Shown here: positions 5,027-60,700 of the stretch, piece by piece
How the letters are laid out: each line of letters opens with the position of its first letter
Numbering within the stretch: the stretch's first letter is position 1
Source: Mobula hypostoma
Taxonomy: Eukaryota
Direction of reading: 5' to 3'
Assembly (NCBI RefSeq): GCF_963921235.1
Contig: NC_086097.1
Location: 39,868,001 to 39,932,000, forward strand
Length of the DNA: 64,000 bases
Notes under the pieces: generated by a model
What the model saw: only the letters and a program-made list of their open reading frames with translations
Database searches by the model: none
What the model was told of the DNA's origin: nothing
Translations under genes and position numbers: made by a program

Positions 5027-6212
5027 TCAAGATGGCGCCTGCCAACAATGCTTATTCGGTCGACAGTTTCTGGATACTTCATGAAACATATTTGACTTCT
5101 TTTATGTCTTTTACATTTGTTTTTCATCTTGAATGTAATTCTGGAACTGCTGAAGTCTGTGATTTATTGTTTGGTGATTATTTGGGTGTTCCAGCACTCT
5201 GCAGTCTCCAAGAGGATTCTGGGAGGAGAGGCAGCTTGCATGACCCTTGTTGTGAGAAGGCTGCGGGATGGGGCACGAGCTGATGTTCAACTCCATTTTG
5301 CTGATTAAACCTTCCATTGTTCGCCAATTAATGTGACGAGCGAGATTGAAACATCGAGGCAAATGCAGAAGATGAGCACTGGCTGCCTGCCTTTTGATTG
5401 CTGGTGGGATCACTCTGCTACCAGAGAGGGGAGACTTCCTTTTGATCGTCGGTGGGATCACTCTGCTACCAGAGAGGGGAGACTTCCTTTTGATTGCTGG
5501 TGGGATCACTCTGCTACCAGAGAGGGGAGACTTCCTTTTGGCTACCAGAGAGGGGAGACTTCCTTTTGATCACCGGTGGGATCACTCTGCTACCAGAGAG
5601 GGGAGACTTCCTTTTGATTGCTGGTGGGATCACTCTGCTACCGGAGAGGGGAGACTGCCTTTTGATCTCCAGTGGGATCAGTCTGCTACCAGAGAGGGGA
5701 GACTGCCTTTTGATCTCCAGTGGGATCACTCTGCTACCAGAGAGGGGAGACTTCCTTTTGATCGCTGATGGGATCTCTCTGCTACCGGAGAGGGGAGACT
5801 TCCTTTTGATCGCTGATGGGATCTCTCTGCTACCGGAGAGGGAAGACTGCCTTTTGATCACCGGTGGGATTGCTCTGCTACTGGAGAGGGGAGAGCCTGC
5901 CACTGTGCCTGGAGGATGTTACCCAGGTTTTATTTTGCATTTTGGATATGGGCTTGGACGCTAGACTTTTCTCAGTCTTATAGTTTTTTGTATTCTGTGC
6001 TTTCTGCCTGGTCTTTCTCTTTTTGTGTTCGGGGGAGGGAGACTTGGAGATAGCTGTGCTTGTTCTGTTTTTGTTCATTTCTTGTGTGGGGAGGAGGGGT
6101 TTGGGGATTGATAATCATGCTGCCTTTATTGTCTTTCTTGGTTTCATGGCTATCTGGAGAAGAATTTCAGAGTTGTATACTTTGATAATAAATGAACCTT
6201 TGAGCCTTTGAA
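5027..6212 (+). mobile_element. Non-autonomous retroposon-like element carrying a 48-bp minisatellite
   Basis: Begins with CAAGATGGCG (YY1-type motif). Ends with TATACTTTGATAATAAATGAACCTTTGA, a tail also seen at about 4540-4575, 7550-7600 (minus), 19295-19330 and 57500-57535. Confidence 0.55.
5387..5894. repeat. 48-bp tandem minisatellite, 10 full units plus one 28-bp partial unit
   Basis: Unit CTTCCTTTTGATTGCTGGTGGGATCACTCTGCTACCAGAGAGGGGAGA. Starts at 5387, 5435, 5483, 5531 (partial), 5559, 5607, 5655, 5703, 5751, 5799, 5847. No spacers. Confidence 0.95.
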
Positions 6213-24684: not shown

Positions 24685-25580
24685 TATATATTAATATCTT
24701 TCCTGAGTTCTACATGTTAAAATTGCAAGTGATGTGAATCAAAGGAAAGGGAAGTATGGTTGACAAGCAGAGTATGGGACTTCCAGCAGCACACACAAAA
24801 TGCTGGAGGAACTCGACAAGTCAGGCAGCATCTATGGAGAGGAATAAACAGTCGATGTTTTGGGGGTCTTTTCACAGCCCATAACTCAGCGTCTGGACAG
24901 CTGCTGACTGAAGGACATATACCCTCTTAGGCATAGAAATATAATAGAACTTACACAATTTGTCTTACTATTGACGGTAATTGTGCATTTTTAAAACAAT
25001 TCTATTATACAGGCCCTACCCAATTGGAGCAGAATGCATGTAACCTTTTAAAGAAATGCACAAGACAAGGGTGAGGAAAACAAGTAACAGACTTACATTA
25101 CCAAATCTTCAATGTTGACCAAAACAATCTAATTTTTTAAATCAAGTAATCATAAATAATTTACAAACTAAAGAATCCAGTTTGAAGAATCTACATCTAC
25201 ATTCTATATAAAGCATGATTAAACTTTGACAGTATCCTAATTTGCTCACTGTGCCAGACACACAATATGACCTTCTCATACAATAAAATTACTCCCTGAT
25301 TATAATGAAATTATGAGCATTACCTGTCATCAAGAATTGCTTGCTTTAGGAAACCATTTTTGTTCACTTAGGAGTTCTCTGATCATCTACTTATTTTGAA
25401 GTGCATACATCCAGTACTCCAGGGAATATGACAGCCAGTTTAAGCATCAGAACGTCCCACAAACAGCAATGCCATGACAGTAAAATAATCTGTCTCGGTA
25501 ATGATGGGCTGGTTATATCTTAGTATCTTTGCAAATATTGGAAAAATAACCAAACTACAATTCAGCTATTAAACTGGTGC

Positions 25581-25804
25581 TGTACCGTATAGCCTACATT
25601 ATAATAAGGGACTACTTTATGTTGTAGTAACACATCTTTCAATGCGCTATTAGGTGCATATTGAGCATGCGCTATTAGACGCATATTGATCTGTACATGT
25701 GTGTTCAGTTCAATTTTGGTCAGTAAAGAACCCTGCTAACTTAGCTCTCATCTCCAGCGTTTTAATTTATAGCTTTGTTGTGTAACCCGGCCACATACAC
25801 AACA
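25581..25804 (+). repeat. 5' LTR
   Basis: TGTACCGTATAGCC...TACACAACA. Ungapped match to 30486-30709 with about 28 mismatches in 224 by hand count, many at CpG. Confidence 0.95.
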
Positions 25805-25807
25805 AAT

Positions 25808-25817
25808 TGGCGATGAG
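25808..25817 (+). promoter_or_regulatory. Primer-binding site, tRNA-Ser(GCU)-like
   Basis: TGGCGATGAG lies 3 nt after the 5' LTR. It is one change from TGGCGACGAG, the complement of the tRNA-Ser(GCU) 3' end CUCGUCGCCA. Confidence 0.8.
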
Positions 25818-26166
25818 ATTAATGAACCTACATTGTATCGGAACGCCGTGTTTTAATTGATAACGACACTCGGAAGAAGAGCGCAACGTACGAGCCAAGG
25901 CAGAGTGAGGCCGCGAGTCTGAAAGGAAACGGAAGCACAGCTGCAAGTCTGGAACGTCGGGAGACCAGGAGACACAGTCGGAGCCACAGCATGTCCAGCC
26001 GAGACCACAGCCGGCGCTGACCCCCAGGGGCTGAGGGTCTGCCTGCCTCAGAAGGGAAATAAAAAGGAGCAACACACACACATCCAGACAGAATGCGCTC
26101 GTGGCACTAGCAAAAAGGTCACATGAGTAAAAAAAGGGAGAACGGGACTAAATTAACATAACAAAG

Positions 26167-27135
26167 ATGGCAATGATTGGAACCATTACAGCGTATGATA
26201 GTAGCATTGAAGACTGGGCAACTTACATTGAAAGAGTGGAGTTATATTGTGATGCTAACGATGTTAATGATGGAAAGAAAGTCAGTATCTTACTTAGTAT
26301 TATGGGAGCAAAAACATACAGCCTGCCACGGGGCTTGTTAACACCTGAAAAGCCAGCTGACAAAACTTTCAAGCAAATAGTAGACACTCTGCAACAGCAT
26401 TTAAACCCCAAACCGCTGGGCATTGCTGAAAGATTTAAATTTCACAATTCGAATCAGAGCAAAAATGAAAGCATTTCTGAATATTGTGCTGAATTGCACA
26501 AATTATCAGAACATTGTCAATTTGGAGCTGGTCCATTGGACGCATTGAGGGACAGGTTAGTGTGTGGCATGTACTGTGAAACTACACAGAAGAAGCTCCT
26601 GGGTGAAAAAGGCCTTACATTTGAGAGAGCACTAAACATCTCAATATCATTAGAAATAGCTGCACGAGGTGCTTCAGAGATACAACAAAAATCTCTGGAA
26701 TATGCAACGAATAAAATGACACTGTACAGAAATGAAGGAAAGAAATGTTACCTTTGTGGGAACAGGTCACATGATCCTGATGGTTGCTGGTTTAAAGACA
26801 AAGAATGCAGAAACTGTGGCAAACAGGGCCACATTGGCAGAGTATGCAAAGCTAGTAAACCGCAGAGAAAGGTCAAATTACAGAGAAACAAGAAACCCCA
26901 GAAAGGAAAACACAACAAGGTACACAAAATTAAAGAAGACAGTTCTGATGAAAACAAATCTGATGAAAGTGAACTGTCTTATCTGCAACTTCACAGTGTG
27001 GAAGAGACAGATGATCGAAGAGTAATAGAGATCACTCCACAAGTGGCAGGCGTAAGACTGAAAATGGAGTTGGATACAGGCTCAGCTTTAACAGTGATCT
27101 CTGTTACAAACGACTGTTTTCACACATACTTCTGA
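26167..27135 (+). CDS. gag: Gypsy Gag plus protease N-terminus (322-aa ORF, ends after a frameshift)
   Basis: EDWATYIERV..Y..AN, PKPL.IAERFKFH..NQ...ESISEY..EL..L...C.FG, ALRDRLVCG. Two knuckles (CYLCGNRSHDPDGC, CRNCGKQGHIGRVC). Aspartyl protease motif ELDTGS. Confidence 0.9.
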   Translation: MAMIGTITAYDSSIEDWATYIERVELYCDANDVNDGKKVSILLSIMGAKTYSLPRGLLTPEKPADKTFKQIVDTLQQHLNPKPLGIAERFKFHNSNQSKNESISEYCAELHKLSEHCQFGAGPLDALRDRLVCGMYCETTQKKLLGEKGLTFERALNISISLEIAARGASEIQQKSLEYATNKMTLYRNEGKKCYLCGNRSHDPDGCWFKDKECRNCGKQGHIGRVCKASKPQRKVKLQRNKKPQKGKHNKVHKIKEDSSDENKSDESELSYLQLHSVEETDDRRVIEITPQVAGVRLKMELDTGSALTVISVTNDCFHTYF

Positions 27136-27345
27136 AACGAACAAAACTTCCACTGCTAAAGACTTACACAGGATAGAAAGTGCGTCCCGAAGGCAAAATT
27201 AAAGTGACAGTGACCCACAGAGGTAAAATACAGCAACTGAACCTCTATGTACTGAAAAATGGAGGACCACCTTTGCTGGGATGTGAATGGCTCAGGAAAA
27301 TCCAGTGGATTGACACACCATCAAGGCACTAGATGTGTCAACAAA
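27040..27345 (+). pseudogene. Gypsy aspartyl protease and linker, disrupted
   Basis: After a frameshift near 27106 it reads YKRLFSHILLKRTKLPLLKTYTG*KVRPEG...LYVLKNGGPPLLGCEWLRKIQ. After a 1-nt deletion it continues [10 protein letters not shown]. Confidence 0.85.
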
Positions 27346-27367
27346 GGAGGGCAGCTCGGCGGGGAAG

Positions 27368-28030
27368 ATGTCCGCAGCTCTCCTCTCACCCATTGTCCAC
27401 TATTCCAATGACGAGGAGGAGCTAGGCAGCGTCAACGATGGGGGCGAACGTAGTATCCGTGGCCGCGACTCGGATGAAGATACAGAGGATGCAAGGGAGA
27501 CCGATATTGCCAATAAGCAGGATGATGAAGACTACCTGGAAGTAAAAGAGCAGATGTACCAGGAGAAATTGTCCTAAAAGACAGCTACAGCAATTACAGG
27601 AAGGCACTTTGCAGGAGTATTAGAAAAGGATGAAGAAACTAGATCAACAATTCAAGGAAAGAATACAAAATGCAGAGCTTTTTCTGCAACTGGAGACAGA
27701 ACAAGTGGAAAGGAATTATATTAAAGAGAAGAAAGCAGCAGTGAAGGAATTTGAAGATAAAAAGATTGAGTTAGAAGAAAAGAAAAAGATGATTGAGAAT
27801 GAGAGGCTAACAATGGAACTCACAGGAGATTCTATGGAGGTAAAGCCAATAAGGACTAGGAAACTAAGGAGGAGACCTAATTGCCCTATTCCAATTACAG
27901 ACAAAAGACAAAAACCTGCACCTGCGCAGTTAACTTACTTGTTAACAGATGAACATATAATGGAAGATCTGCAAACTCTCAATAAGCTTAAATCTCCGAA
28001 AAGACCAGCATCTCCGTCTTCTCCTGAACA
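27368..28030 (+). pseudogene. SUDS3: Processed (intronless) SUDS3 fragment inside the LTR element
   Basis: MSAALL...[15 protein letters not shown]...[14 protein letters not shown], then [62 protein letters not shown]...[18 protein letters not shown]...[36 protein letters not shown]. This closely matches vertebrate SDS3 from the start to about residue 240. It has a frameshift near 27572, a stop near 27621, loss of about 8 codons (KENLIAEL in human) and a 3' truncation. Confidence 0.95.
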
Positions 28031-28384
28031 ATTTCCTTGGGAAAGATCCATGCAAATTGATTATCCCTTAAAAGCTCTTGGACAAAATCAATTCCATTCA
28101 AACAGAACAGCTTTCGCACAAGGTAAATCTTTAATTGATCATTTCCTCCATTGAGAATCATACACTTAATCCTTTGCAGGGAAGCTTCTTTTGCACGTAC
28201 GTATTTTGAATCCTCAGCAATGTGTCTTGTTTTGCACAAAGACATTGGGAAACAGCATCAAAACAGAGGCGAATTCTGGCAACAAACTGTAAGGTTTCTA
28301 TTGTTGTATTTTCACACTTGCACAAAATAAACAACACATGAGCTTGGGCACAAGCCAAAAATCAGCCACATCAGGAAGATTCAA
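28018..28384 (-). pseudogene. RNF213: RNF213 cDNA fragment, downstream part (antisense to the LTR element)
   Basis: TTIETLQFVARIRLCFD and [40 protein letters not shown] align with human RNF213 SVEYLQEVARIRLCLD and NDWHRVYLVRKLSSQRGMEFVQGL...WVFPKDVVK (from memory). One frameshift between the blocks. Confidence 0.85.
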
Positions 28385-29825
28385 GCGCTAGTGAATAGAG
28401 GTAAGTTTTGAGCCTGGACTTAAAAGATCAATGGGGGGGGGGCAGATCTGATAGGGAGGGGAATGTTGTTCCACAGTCTAGGGACTACAACAGCACAAGG
28501 CACAGTCACCCCTGAACTTAAATTTAGATCGCGGGGCAGCCAGGAGCCCCAAGTCAGCCGACCTGAGGGAACTGGAAGTAGAATAAGGAGTTAGAAGGTC
28601 TGCGATATAGGAGGGGGCCAGCCCATTTAGGGGTTTATAAACAAACAGGAGAACCTTGAAATCAATTCTAAACCATACTGGTAACCACTGTAGAAAGGCC
28701 AGGATAGAAGTAATATGGTCCCTCTTCCGGGCACCTGTCAGGAGCCTGGCTGTGGTGTTCTGGACCAGTTGCAGGCAGGACAAGGACGACTGACTAATCC
28801 CAGTATACAGGGAGTTGGAGTAGTCCAAGCGGGCAGATATAAGGGTGTGGATGACTTTCTTGAGATCTTTGAAAGAGAGAAACGTCTTGATTTTGGCAAT
28901 AGTACGAAGCTGGAAAAAATTGGCTTTTACTACCACATTAACTTGCTGGTCAAACTTAAAGGCGGAATCAAATATTACACCAAGGTTTTTGACATGGTGT
29001 TTGACAAGGGTAGACAGGTTACCAAGACTGTTGGTAATCACTTTGATGGAGTCAGTGGGGCTAAATAGGACAACTTCAGACTTGCCTTCATTCAACTGTC
29101 GGAAGTTTTGTGCCATCCAACACTTTATGTCCTCAAGGCAGTTCATGAGACTGACTAGATTTGATTGGTCGTTTGGTTTCAAGGGGAGATAAAGCTGTGT
29201 GTTGTCAGCATAACAATGGAAGGAAATTACATGTTTTTGAATGATTTGGCCAAGGGGAAGCATGTATATAGAGAAAAGAATAGGACCTAGGATGGAACCT
29301 TATGGGACCCTGCAAGAGAGACTAACTAGAGAAGAGGAAAATTTGCCTATGCTGGCGGCGCAGCTTCTATTTTTGACATAGGATATGAACCACTTCAAGG
29401 CAGTGCCATCAACACCAACCCCGTAATGGAGACGGTCTATTAAAATGGCATGATCCATAGTATTGAATGCGCTGAGGTCAAGAAGAATTAGGATGGCAGA
29501 GTCACCTGAGTCGGTAGAGAGGAGGAGATCATTGTACACTTTCAGCAGGGCAGACTTTGTGCTATGATAACCTTAAAACCTGACTGAAATCTTTCCTAGA
29601 TGTTGTTTTGGTGTAGGTAGGGCAGCAATTGACTAAGAATAACCTTTTCGATAACCTTTGACAGGAATGGAAGTTTAGAAATAGGTCTGTAGTTACTAGG
29701 TAAGGTAGGGTCTAAATTGTTTTTTTTTCAGGAGGGGCTTGACCGTAGCACGCTTGAAGCAGGTTGGAATGGTACCAGTGGCCAGGGAGCTGTTGATTAT
29801 AGAGAGGATGCTGGGACTGGCTATG
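28385..29825 (-). mobile_element. L2-clade LINE RT fragment inserted in the RNF213 segment
   Basis: ORFs 29696..29881 (IINSSLATG.IP..FK.A.V.PLLKK), 29300..29539 (LILLDLSAF.T.DH.IL) and 28478..29263 (HCYADNTQLY, SARLDYSNSL, RDHITSILA.LQWLP). Confidence 0.9.
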
Positions 29826-29829
29826 TCAA

Positions 29830-30290
29830 TCTTTTCTTGCACTGTGCACAATTGGGATTTTTCATACATTGAATCCTCCAAACAATTCAGAAACAGTGCA
29901 TAGAGTTCAGTCTCATTTTCTCGACTAAGATTTGTTTTTTTTTTAACTTCAGACAGATAGCACTGCAGGTACTCCTTAATATCAGCAAAACTGTACTTTA
30001 GCAGCAGCTTAAGAACAATGGAATGAACAGCAGGATTTCGATCAACTGCTTCTTCAAACTGTGAAAGATTACTGGTAAAGTAGTGATCTTTCTGTGAGAC
30101 ATTGGATTGCCCCGACTTTTGAATAACTAGCCAAGACAGAAGATCACCAACTACTTCTTTTGGAAACCAAAGCTACAAAAAATGCATCACACCTCTTGCA
30201 AAATATGACTAATTTTGCTACAGCTTCAGTTATTTCTTCTGTTACCGCTGGTACATAATCATCAACTAGAGAAGTACAGCACAGTGGGCA
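29830..30290 (-). pseudogene. RNF213: RNF213 cDNA fragment, upstream part (end of RING into E3 module)
   Basis: Minus strand reads CPLCCTSLVDDYVPAVTEEITEAVAK...CKRCDAF, KEVVGDLLSWLVIQK, SQFEEAVDRNPAVHSIVLKLLLKYSFADIKEYLQCYL and ETELYALFLNCLEDSMYEK. The human counterparts (from memory) are CPYCLTALPDEFSPAVS, KEVIESLLSLLFVQK, SPFNDVVDKTPVIRSVILKLLLKYSFHDVKDYIQEYL and KTELYMLFINCLEDSILEK. Confidence 0.88.
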
Positions 30291-30467
30291 GAGTCCCCCC
30301 CAGAGACTTGAGTTATAAATGGGTCTTAGACCAAAAGTTAAAAAAAAGGCTTGTTATAATTTGATATTATTAAGTTACTAAGTAAACAAATGGTAGGCGT
30401 TTTATCTTAGGGGTAAACATATTTGTTTAGCATAGTGCCCCAGTAAAAAAAAAGTTGATACACTATT

Positions 30468-30485
30468 AAAATAAAAGGGGTGGAG
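30468..30485 (+). promoter_or_regulatory. Polypurine tract
   Basis: AAAATAAAAGGGGTGGAG immediately before the 3' LTR. Confidence 0.85.
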
Positions 30486-30709
30486 TGTATCGTATAGCCT
30501 ACATTATAATAAGGGAGTACATTATGTTGTAGTAACACGTCGTTGAATGTGCTATTAGGCACGTATTGAGCATGTGCTATTAGGCGCGTATTGATCAGTA
30601 CGTGTGTGTTCAGTTCAGCTTCAGTCAGTAAAGAATCTTGCTAATTTAGCTCCCGTCTCCAGTGTTCTTATTTATAGCTTTGTTGTGTAACCCGCCCACA
30701 TACACAACA
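30486..30709 (+). repeat. 3' LTR
   Basis: TGTATCGTATAGCC...TACACAACA, followed by TSD GGTAC. Confidence 0.95.
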
Positions 30710-31033
30710 GGTACTTGTCGCAACACCACTTGAAATATGTGTAAAGTACAGATAAATAAAGTTTGGAGACACTTTCAGATATCATGAAACTAACATAACA
30801 AAGAATGTGAAAAAATATTTATTAATTATTTAATTAAAACTATACTCTTGTTCAGATTATGTTTTCACAGCTGCACTCTTCGGTGCTTGCAGAAATGCAA
30901 CATCGAAGAGGCTCCTAATATATTGGTGCCAACTCTTTGGAGAGCTCTTCTAATAGCCCTGGAGCCATATTGCTGTTTCCCCAGAAACTTAAACATTTTC
31001 CTCAATTTCATTATTGTTTTCTTTCTGATATCA

Positions 31034-40815: not shown

Positions 40816-41164
40816 CAGTGTCCCTAACCTCCAAGCCACGGACCGATACCGGGCTGCAAGGCATGCAGGGGTGCAGCGGTAGCTGGGACCCACCCAGCAC
40901 ATCTTTAAGAAAAAAGCCGAAATAAACAAGCTAATTAATTAGGTGCCGCCTGGCACGTAAACATCGGCCCAGATCAGAGGCGATGCAATTGGCAATCGCC
41001 TCTGATCTGGGCCAACAATTACGTGCCGGGTGGCACCTAATTAATTAGCTTGTTTATTTCGGCTTTTTTCTTAAAGATATGCTGGGTGCGTTCTGGCTAC
41101 AACTGTACCGCTGCATTCTTCGCAGCAATGTATTGGTCCACGGCCCAGAGGTTGGGGACCACTG
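40816..41164. mobile_element. hAT (Charlie-type) MITE, strongly palindromic
   Basis: Termini CAGTGTCCCTAACCT and AGGTTGGGGACCACTG. 8-bp TSD GCCTAGTC/GCCTAGAC. Internal inverted repeat at about 40892-41087. Confidence 0.88.
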
Positions 41165-59209: not shown

Positions 59210-60700
59210 TCATTTTTAAAATATTTTTATTGATACATAATCTTCTACAGCTATAAAATGATACAAGACTTCAACAAGTTGATATATATACAGTTAATAA
59301 AGCTGAAGAAAATATTTATCAAATAAGAATAATATATGATAATGAAAAAAATTATTTTTTATAAAGAAAAGAAGGAAAAAAAGAGAACTCCAACTAACTA
59401 AAAGAAAAAAACCCACTAACTACAAAAGAAAGAAAAAGAAAAAAAAAGAAAAAAGAAAAAAGAAAAAAAAATCCATTAGGAACCAGCTCCTGGAAAAATA
59501 TGTCTTACGATCATCTGTATATATAAAGAAGAAAAATCATCATCCGCCAACTCACATTTATATAAAATAAGATTGGAAGGAAACCATATAAATTAATTCA
59601 AATTAAATGATAATATTTGGCAAAAGAGCCCCATCTTCTCTCAAAATCGAATCGAGGATCAAAAGTCCTACTTCTAATTTTTTTCCGAAATAAGACATAA
59701 CATTACTTGGGAAAACCATTGAATTAATGTAGGGACAGAGGTACCTTTCCATTTCAATAAAATAGCCCTTCTTGCCAACAATGTATCAAATGCAATTACA
59801 TGTTGGTCTGAAGATGAAACACCCTGAATATGATGTGGAACTATTCCAAATAGAACAGTCAGTATATAAGGTTGTAAATTAATTTTCAGAGCTTTAGAAA
59901 TTGTAAAAAATAAAGAGTTCCAAAAAGATTTTAATGAAGAACATGACCAGAACATATGTGACAAAGTGGCTACTTCAGTTTTACACCTATCACAATAGTT
60001 GTCTATGTTAGGAAATATTTTGGATAGTCTCTCCTTTGTTAAATAATAACGGTGAACAATTTTAAATTGAATTAAACAGTGATTGCCACATACCGAAGAA
60101 GAATTGACCATTTTCAGAACTTGCAACCAATCTTCATTAACAAAGGTCATATTAAGTTCTCCCTCCCAATCTTGTTTAATCTTTAGTGAGAGGTTAACTT
60201 TTTGTAGTAAAAATAAATTATAAATTCTACCAATGGAACCTCTCACTAAAGGATTCATATTCAAAATAGTATCCAACAAATCAGATACTTGCATATATGG
60301 AAACTTAGATAAGTATTTTTGTAAAAAATGTCCAACCTGTAGATATTGCAGGAAGTGTGTATGAGAGAGGGAATATTTACTAATTAACTCTTCAAAAGTC
60401 ATCAATCGACCATCACAAAATAAATCTGCAAAAAAACAGATCCTTGAAGGCTTAAATAGAAAATTTCAATATAAACAGCTATACAATTTAAATTGTTTAA
60501 AATTAAAAGAGTTGCGAAACTGAAACCAAATCCATAAGGACTGTTTAATAACTGGGTAGAGATTTAAATTTGGAATTTTAGCAAGTTGTAAAGGTAATGG
60601 AGCTCCTAATAATGAGGTTAAATAAAGTTGTTTGATAGCTTTTCATTCCAAATCGATCCAAGCTGGTTTTTGGCTCTTGTCGAGCCAATATAGTCAAAAA
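59210..60700 (-). mobile_element. L1-clade LINE 3' fragment
   Basis: ORF 59674..60405 has FLQYLQV.HFL, LIQFKIVHR.Y.T..RL.KI.P, knuckle CDRC....ATLSHMFWSC and ARRAILLKWK. T-rich 3' UTR ending in AATAAA. Confidence 0.9.

Follow-up and report, generated by a model that had tools for sequence, protein, structure and literature searches.

A decayed, multi-copy LTR retrotransposon of Mobula hypostoma with SUDS3 and backwards RNF213 cargo probably derived from spliced mRNA

RNF213-like sequence on the minus strand was followed up in a 64,000-nt stretch of the Mobula hypostoma genome (contig NC_086097.1, positions 39,868,001 to 39,932,000; this whole stretch is referred to as the window, and positions are counted from its first letter). 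We consider it quite probable that this sequence is passive, neutral cargo within a decayed, non-autonomous copy of a multi-copy long terminal repeat (LTR) retrotransposon, which took up SUDS3 in sense and RNF213 in backwards orientation, both from spliced mRNA. An earlier sequence-only reading had treated a single fragment. Its antisense orientation and its spliced source stood, but it missed the multi-copy family and the probable entry of RNF213 as a second cargo into an element already carrying SUDS3.

The element that hosts the cargo, at 25581-30709 (Table 1), is a non-autonomous LTR retrotransposon in a decayed state. A 5-bp target duplication with one mismatch flanks the whole element, and its LTRs differ at 28 of 224 sites (87.5% alike; Kimura two-parameter distance 0.14). 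By motif order we take the gag/protease element to be Ty3/gypsy-like; in Pfam the gag region only matched DUF7083 with an E value of 0.0056, below the cut-off of that family. Six-frame reading of 27300-30500 revealed no reverse transcriptase (RT), ribonuclease H (RNaseH) or integrase core of the element, and this interval consists of SUDS3, RNF213 or L2 sequence throughout, save for the tail of ~190 nt. The enzyme genes of the element were replaced, not merely interrupted, by cargo. Relative to the 5’ LTR the RNF213 fragment is antisense, as had been proposed from the sequence.

Table 1. Features of the element and its cargo, in window positions. Residue numbers refer to Mobula birostris RNF213 (P0126).
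Feature	Positions	Strand	Remarks
Left target-site duplication	25576-25580		5 bp; 4/5 match right copy
5’ LTR	25581-25804	+	224 nt, TG...CA; TATA-like word 25600, polyA-signal-like word 25722
Primer-binding-site-like stretch	25808-25817	+	Starts TGG, three bases past LTR (from sequence)
gag with two zinc-knuckle motifs, then broken protease region	26167-27340	+	From motifs
SUDS3 copy, spliced, sense	27341-28027	+	Short 5’ leader, ATG 27368, about codons 1-225
SUDS3/RNF213 8-nt exact overlap	28020-28027		Loose X17 contig ends at 28020 and 28027
RNF213 3’ piece	28020-28320	-	Residues 3790-3890; one-base frameshift near 28217
RNF213 block	28239-28018	-	Residues 3816-3890
RNF213 block	28319-28203	-	Residues 3790-3828
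L2-type LINE fragment	28321-29826	-	RT and C-terminus; RVT_1 E 2e-8
RNF213 5’ piece	29827-30293	-	Residues 3609-3773, from last RING CxxC
RNF213 block	30160-29828	-	Residues 3664-3773
RNF213 block	30293-30162	-	Residues 3609-3652
Retrotransposon 3’ tail (likely last pol codons)	30294-30485	+	Polypurine tract about 30468-30485
3’ LTR	30486-30709	+	224 nt
Right target-site duplication	30710-30714		5 bp

Using RNF213 of Mobula birostris as reference (P0126, 4776 aa, the closest relative found), tblastn detected two minus-strand pieces totalling 768 nt, in which 211 of the 269 aligned residues were identical to residues 3609-3890 of the protein, in four blocks with E values down to 5e-62. The layout of two collinear pieces given by the sequence-only reading was thus recovered, its length of ~830 nt was too great, and its limits, the last RING CxxC at the start and WIFPKEIVQ at the end, were as described. 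Skate RNF213 as query returned the same block layout, and the open frame 29834-30172 matched a skate RNF213-like protein (65%, E 1e-29) and human RNF213 chains (E 5e-25). Since a Pfam scan at E 0.01 gave no family for the SUDS3 or RNF213 pieces, the identity of both rests on these sequence searches. Inside the 64-kb window no second copy of any part was found except the other LTR. The RNF213 copy is decayed, with two frameshifts or deletions, a break by the L2 piece and 22% residue divergence. About 30 nt (residues 3653-3663) are deleted from the 5’ piece at 30161/30162, and residues 3774-3789 of P0126 are missing. Read from the strand of the element, the cargo does not yield a translation.

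Contig coverage was taken from 4 of the 24 listed sequencing runs, as contigs only. X1, apparently DNA, has contigs that match both window flanks with 0 differences; X5, apparently also DNA, comes from another organism than X1, and its lack of cover on the right flank among the matches listed is given no weight; X15 and X17 are apparently RNA, with contigs that carry no strand and may hold DNA. Joints, pieces and loose ends are those among the contig matches listed, and all counts drawn from them are at-least values. A 990-nt contig of X17 (contig 22) is collinear with the two RNF213 pieces, covering 29827-30162 with 28 other letters and 28175-28320 with 14; in the mRNA-like contigs of X17 the RNF213 match ends at 28020. 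The 46 letters between its two window matches set the limits of the L2 fragment and show that 46 nt of RNF213 were replaced by it; the interruption, formerly placed at 28385-29825, had to be corrected, with the left RNF213 piece ending at 28320. From the mRNA contig the RNF213 cargo has diverged by 8.4-9.6%, a value close to half of the distance between the LTRs with host drift added.

Exon positions were taken from human RNF213, which we take to be 5,207 residues long. Human numbering was obtained as chain 9g08_A minus 40, an offset checked by R and K at R4131 and K4185. R4062 is assigned to exon 45, R4131 to exon 46, K4185 to exon 48 and Q4367 to exon 51 (Table 1 of PMC5472300). In the alignment with the human chain R4131 and K4185 fall in one uninterrupted 113-codon frame of the window, and R4062 was placed in the block 30293-30162 by counting back 24 residues. 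Because the right RNF213 piece spans human exons 45 to 48 without an intron, crossing at least three junctions, it probably derives from spliced mRNA. This bears out the spliced source suggested by the sequence-only reading, with R4131 and K4185 in one frame and the collinear contig of X17; a mapping within one exon, named beforehand as the outcome that would count against it, is not what the human map gives. Exon crossing in the ray itself would follow if intron positions are common to human and ray, as we assume.

The interrupting piece, a fragment of a long interspersed nuclear element (LINE), is named L2 from its motifs and presumably resembles teleost-type L2 elements. It is 1,506 nt long, extends about 60 nt beyond its own open reading frame (ORF), and shows no tail and no flanking duplication. 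The longest word near both junctions has 7 nt and is offset from the right junction. A template switch and a single later deletion, which would have taken the L2 tail together with 46 nt of RNF213, suit this arrangement equally well. An insertion between 4-bp repeats that cost no RNF213 sequence was considered and rejected, since the mRNA contig shows 46 nt to be replaced. The fragment keeps a 273-codon frame, and its 3’ end is covered at hundreds-fold depth; a horizontal origin is conceivable.

The SUDS3 copy carries a frameshift near 27574, a stop near 27621 and a family-diagnostic 24-nt (8-residue) deletion near 27770, and the 3’ third of SUDS3 is absent from the whole window. SUDS3 comparison with 121 protein hits yielded 72 of the long form and 7 of the deleted form, with 42 missed by the pattern. 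All seven deleted forms are Mobula SDS3-like models, representing six loci on different long contigs, and these six loci carry full-length SUDS3. In the core region (excluding the mis-windowed skate row P0012) they are 85-91% alike mutually and 91-95% alike to the sawfish orthologue, compared with 99-100% among the orthologues of sawfish, electric ray and chimaera. As judged from these similarities, the six loci represent star-like, neutral and independent decay from one captured ancestor. A contig of X15 (contig 11; 181 nt, 27672-27852) is identical to the window across the family deletion, and the next base beyond its end is one at which the window differs from the parent gene; its depth is 67 while the left flank is without X15 cover.

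Read depth and junctions indicate a family of such elements. Against a flank depth of 13-24 in X1, SUDS3 reached 589-819x and RNF213 73-93x (reference depth 18), ratios that are rough and, by the tool’s own warning, not copy numbers. Single RNF213 sites in X1 had depths of 274-646 (15-36x flank), and over the 3’ tail the depth was back to gag level (17,252). Relative to the flank, X5 gave 446-1192x for SUDS3 and 90-239x for RNF213, depending on the flank value used. RNF213-bearing forms were about 0.1 (X1) and 0.2 (X5) as deep as SUDS3. This suggests that SUDS3-carrying forms likely number in the hundreds and RNF213-carrying forms in the tens. The SUDS3/RNF213 junction recurred in contig 5 of X1 (27974-28255, 30 other letters in 282), and the RNF213/tail junction in contig 16 of X15 (17 other letters in 262). 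Listed X5 joints connect 28012/28013 to 28093/28095 and 28307/28320 to 29950/29951, the latter with RNF213 letters and without L2, and according to the joints listed sister copies delete differing parts of the RNF213 cargo. The chimera spread as a non-autonomous element with common junctions.

Because sister copies share the SUDS3/RNF213 junction, antisense RNF213 transcripts would once have been made, and RNA running from LTR to LTR would have existed while the family spread. The sequence-only reading went further and held that a transcript from the LTR could yield double-stranded RNA (dsRNA) or small RNAs. This was left unsupported by a fragment that is broken, diverged and present in a minority form, as was any present antisense, dsRNA or small-RNA role. 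An antisense regulator or counter-defence device, whose dsRNA or PIWI-interacting RNAs (piRNAs) would silence RNF213 (and SUDS3) mRNA to the advantage of the element or as an adjustment of host immunity, is improbable in our view. It could draw on the 5’ LTR, which keeps its TATA-like and polyA-like words upstream of antisense RNF213 in a family whose spread implies transcripts, on putative RNA contigs covering family junctions, and on the calculation that at 8-10% divergence more than half of the 26-mers would differ from the mRNA at no more than two positions. In maize, captured gene fragments draw small interfering RNAs (siRNAs) onto donor genes, although in the same account capturing elements show no gain in copy number (bioRxiv 10.1101/777037). 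Here too, the lower depth of RNF213-bearing forms reveals no advantage, and the cargo was not kept intact, given deletions that differ among copies, 8-10% divergence and a depth below that of SUDS3-bearing forms. Moreover, depth in the putative RNA runs tracked DNA depth like background. The ratio of the two was about 0.002-0.018 whether taken over gag, over SUDS3 or over most of L2, with rank correlations of 0.57 for X15 versus X1 (27 bins, p 0.002) and 0.28 for X17 versus X5 (p 0.16); over RNF213 a higher ratio is expected because the parent mRNA contributes. We regard as quite improbable the more specific idea that the family, having captured host mRNAs one after another, now produces germline RNA antisense to RNF213, an E3 ligase of innate immunity, either as an animal example of epigenetic conflict in which piRNA silencing of the element also cuts RNF213 and SUDS3 mRNA, or as counter-defence directed at cell-autonomous immunity. 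That both cargo genes are linked to defence or silencing amounts to two draws and no more.

Two observations concern the leader and gag region. Depth in X17 was 2,710 on the leader at 25873-26063, compared to 130-400 in neighbouring bins. P0005, a Mobula hypostoma SDS3-like protein, joins 25948-25998 to 27293-27574, as if gag had been spliced from an LTR transcript.

How RNF213 entered backwards can be approached from the first junction. The SUDS3 mRNA-like contig of X17 leaves the window after 28027 and the RNF213 contig before 28020, and by eye the loose letters of both continue as the next codons of each protein. Sense SUDS3 and antisense RNF213 hence share eight exact bases, with a chance of about 2e-4 per random junction, and this stretch is likely the priming site, where copying of RNF213 mRNA into DNA probably began from an end of SUDS3 DNA. 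A simple minus-strand switch, which fits SUDS3, fails for RNF213, because a spliced transcript has no antisense twin. The RNF213 insert is 3’-truncated, ending at residue 3890 of 4776, and lacks poly(A). A backwards, tail-less and 3’-truncated piece is what would result, because a plus-strand DNA end would prime on RNF213 mRNA toward the RING. Further hints came from P0124, a RefSeq SDS3-like model of Mobula birostris, which leaves SUDS3 three residues earlier than the window and continues with 8 residues that are identical to 28094-28117 read on the plus strand, at the same point as the X5 joints; of 244 proteins compared it is the one that holds them. It then resumes SUDS3 at a repeat of the three residues upstream of the departure point. 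Taken together with the window junction, P0124 points to an insert with a duplication of perhaps 20 nt at most on its two sides, a lead that joins two copies and a gene model. Flanking duplications of this kind characterise target-primed reverse transcription, as known from tailless retropseudogenes (PMC5322556).

For the route of entry, LINE-type target-primed insertion into an integrated copy has, in our estimate, an even chance of being correct; a switch during plus-strand synthesis in the particle is possible with clearly lower probability, and some other route is unlikely. A minus-strand template switch onto co-packaged antisense RNA from an earlier processed RNF213 retrocopy would also leave an 8-nt microsimilarity, which is typical of such events (median 6 bp in Tan et al. 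2016, PMC5131818), and would suit RNF213 running straight into the element tail, which here amounts to replacement. However, it needs a second, unseen retrocopy, and in P0124 the SUDS3 reading returns behind the insert with a short repeat, which makes this alternative rather remote. DNA-level capture of genomic RNF213, from a large exon or an intron-less paralogue and with no RNA step, is extremely improbable, since the right piece spans several human exons. An X1 contig of depth 22.5, a single-copy level, links 28320 and 29827 across 46 letters and might represent a parent exon; the part it covers is short, however, and may belong to one exon or to an L2-free sister.

The P0124 model has an isoform, P0007 (SDS3-like X2, P0124 being X1), and the two differ by 10 residues including the antisense RNF213 reading. 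It may be that the backwards insert was annotated as an intron; if splicing there is real, the SUDS3 frame would be restored.

Returning to passive cargo from spliced mRNA as the preferred explanation, several points weigh against it. The intron positions come from the human gene, and the 78% identity to P0126 may include paralogue distance. The decay is uneven, with only 2.4% divergence between SUDS3 at 27679-27924 and the mRNA contig but 12.5% between the LTRs. The duplication is known through one sister-locus gene model, and the window copy is without the 3’ part of SUDS3. Finally, the 181-nt contig of X15 and the putative RNA contig across the RNF213/tail junction suggest that some members may be transcribed.

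On the preferred explanation, a gypsy-like element would first have lost RT-RNaseH-integrase and gained spliced SUDS3 coding sequence in their place. Moved in trans, this SUDS3 element would have reached hundreds of copies. In one of these, a plus-strand DNA end at SUDS3 28020-28027 would have paired with 8 nt of RNF213 mRNA, and cDNA synthesis toward the mRNA 5’ end as far as the RING would have left a backwards insert with no poly(A). The chimera may then have multiplied into tens of copies, of which several, including the one in the window, lost the 3’ part of SUDS3. Thereafter an L2 fragment would have replaced 46 nt of RNF213 in the window copy or its sub-lineage, and the copy would have integrated with its 5-bp duplication, its LTRs drifting 12.5% apart.

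Elsewhere the window holds a tandem array of about 48-nt units (5321-5942) that is open in several frames, and an inverted repeat at 40820-41159 with 165-nt arms that are 83% complementary and 10 nt apart. An A+T-rich frame of 263 codons on the minus strand (59677-60465) presumably resembles the C-terminal end of an L1/Tx1-type LINE ORF2.

In a 2026 survey SUDS3 is one of the five genes with the most retrocopies in cartilaginous fishes, and rankings of this sort are taken there as a sign of selective filtering in genomes where non-LTR elements are the driving force (bioRxiv 10.64898/2026.06.26.734816). The main text of this survey mentions neither RNF213 nor Mobula and gives no LTR explanation, and among the papers listed by our literature searches on SUDS3 retrocopies and LTRs, Mobula LTR elements and RNF213 antisense pseudogenes none concerned this family. 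Hitch-hiking in one LTR family likely explains the SUDS3 ranking, as a simpler and testable cause. Several RefSeq SDS3-like genes of Mobula are likely transposon copies, and the backwards RNF213 block could serve as a natural experiment on the spread of animal piRNAs from captured cargo to donor genes.

Capture by LTR elements is known in animals from low-copy cases; here, in a vertebrate, likely hundreds of copies with nested cargo are involved. Among the LTR-mediated retrocopies of Tan et al. 2016 (PMC5131818) are CG17604_r and CG4799_CG11924_r of Drosophila and the four-gene “Super” of mouse. As in those retrocopies, which have both LTRs, replaced internal ORFs, junction microsimilarity, multi-gene cargo and re-mobilisation, the present element has an LTR pair with target duplication, replaced ORFs, probably spliced cargo and shared junctions. 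Of its junctions, SUDS3/RNF213 showed 8 nt of microsimilarity. Unlike them (1-5 or few insertions), it likely has hundreds of SUDS3 and tens of RNF213 copies, and one cargo lies backwards. Of its two cargoes SUDS3 likely came first and was itself entered by RNF213. With maize Bs1 and human HERV-K/FAM8A1 (PMC5131818) it shares an LTR shell holding host mRNA fragments with common switch points; unlike maize Bs1 (1-5 copies, with an ORF), it belongs to a much larger family and holds its RNF213 cargo in backwards and broken form.

The RNF213 insert resembles the tailless retropseudogenes of Noll et al. 2015 (PMC5322556) in being 3’-truncated and tail-less with internal RNA complementarity. Unlike those insertions, which belong to therian L1 with A-rich priming, the overlap here is not A-rich, the signs of a flanking duplication are indirect, and the insert later gained copies as part of an LTR element. 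Host exons within transposons also recall the capture conflict described in maize (bioRxiv 10.1101/777037), where siRNA and methylation data show the effect; in the ray the corresponding response would be a prediction. Altogether, LTR-mediated retroposition is a known kind of event, and it is the scale, the nesting and the antisense cargo that are unusual in this family.

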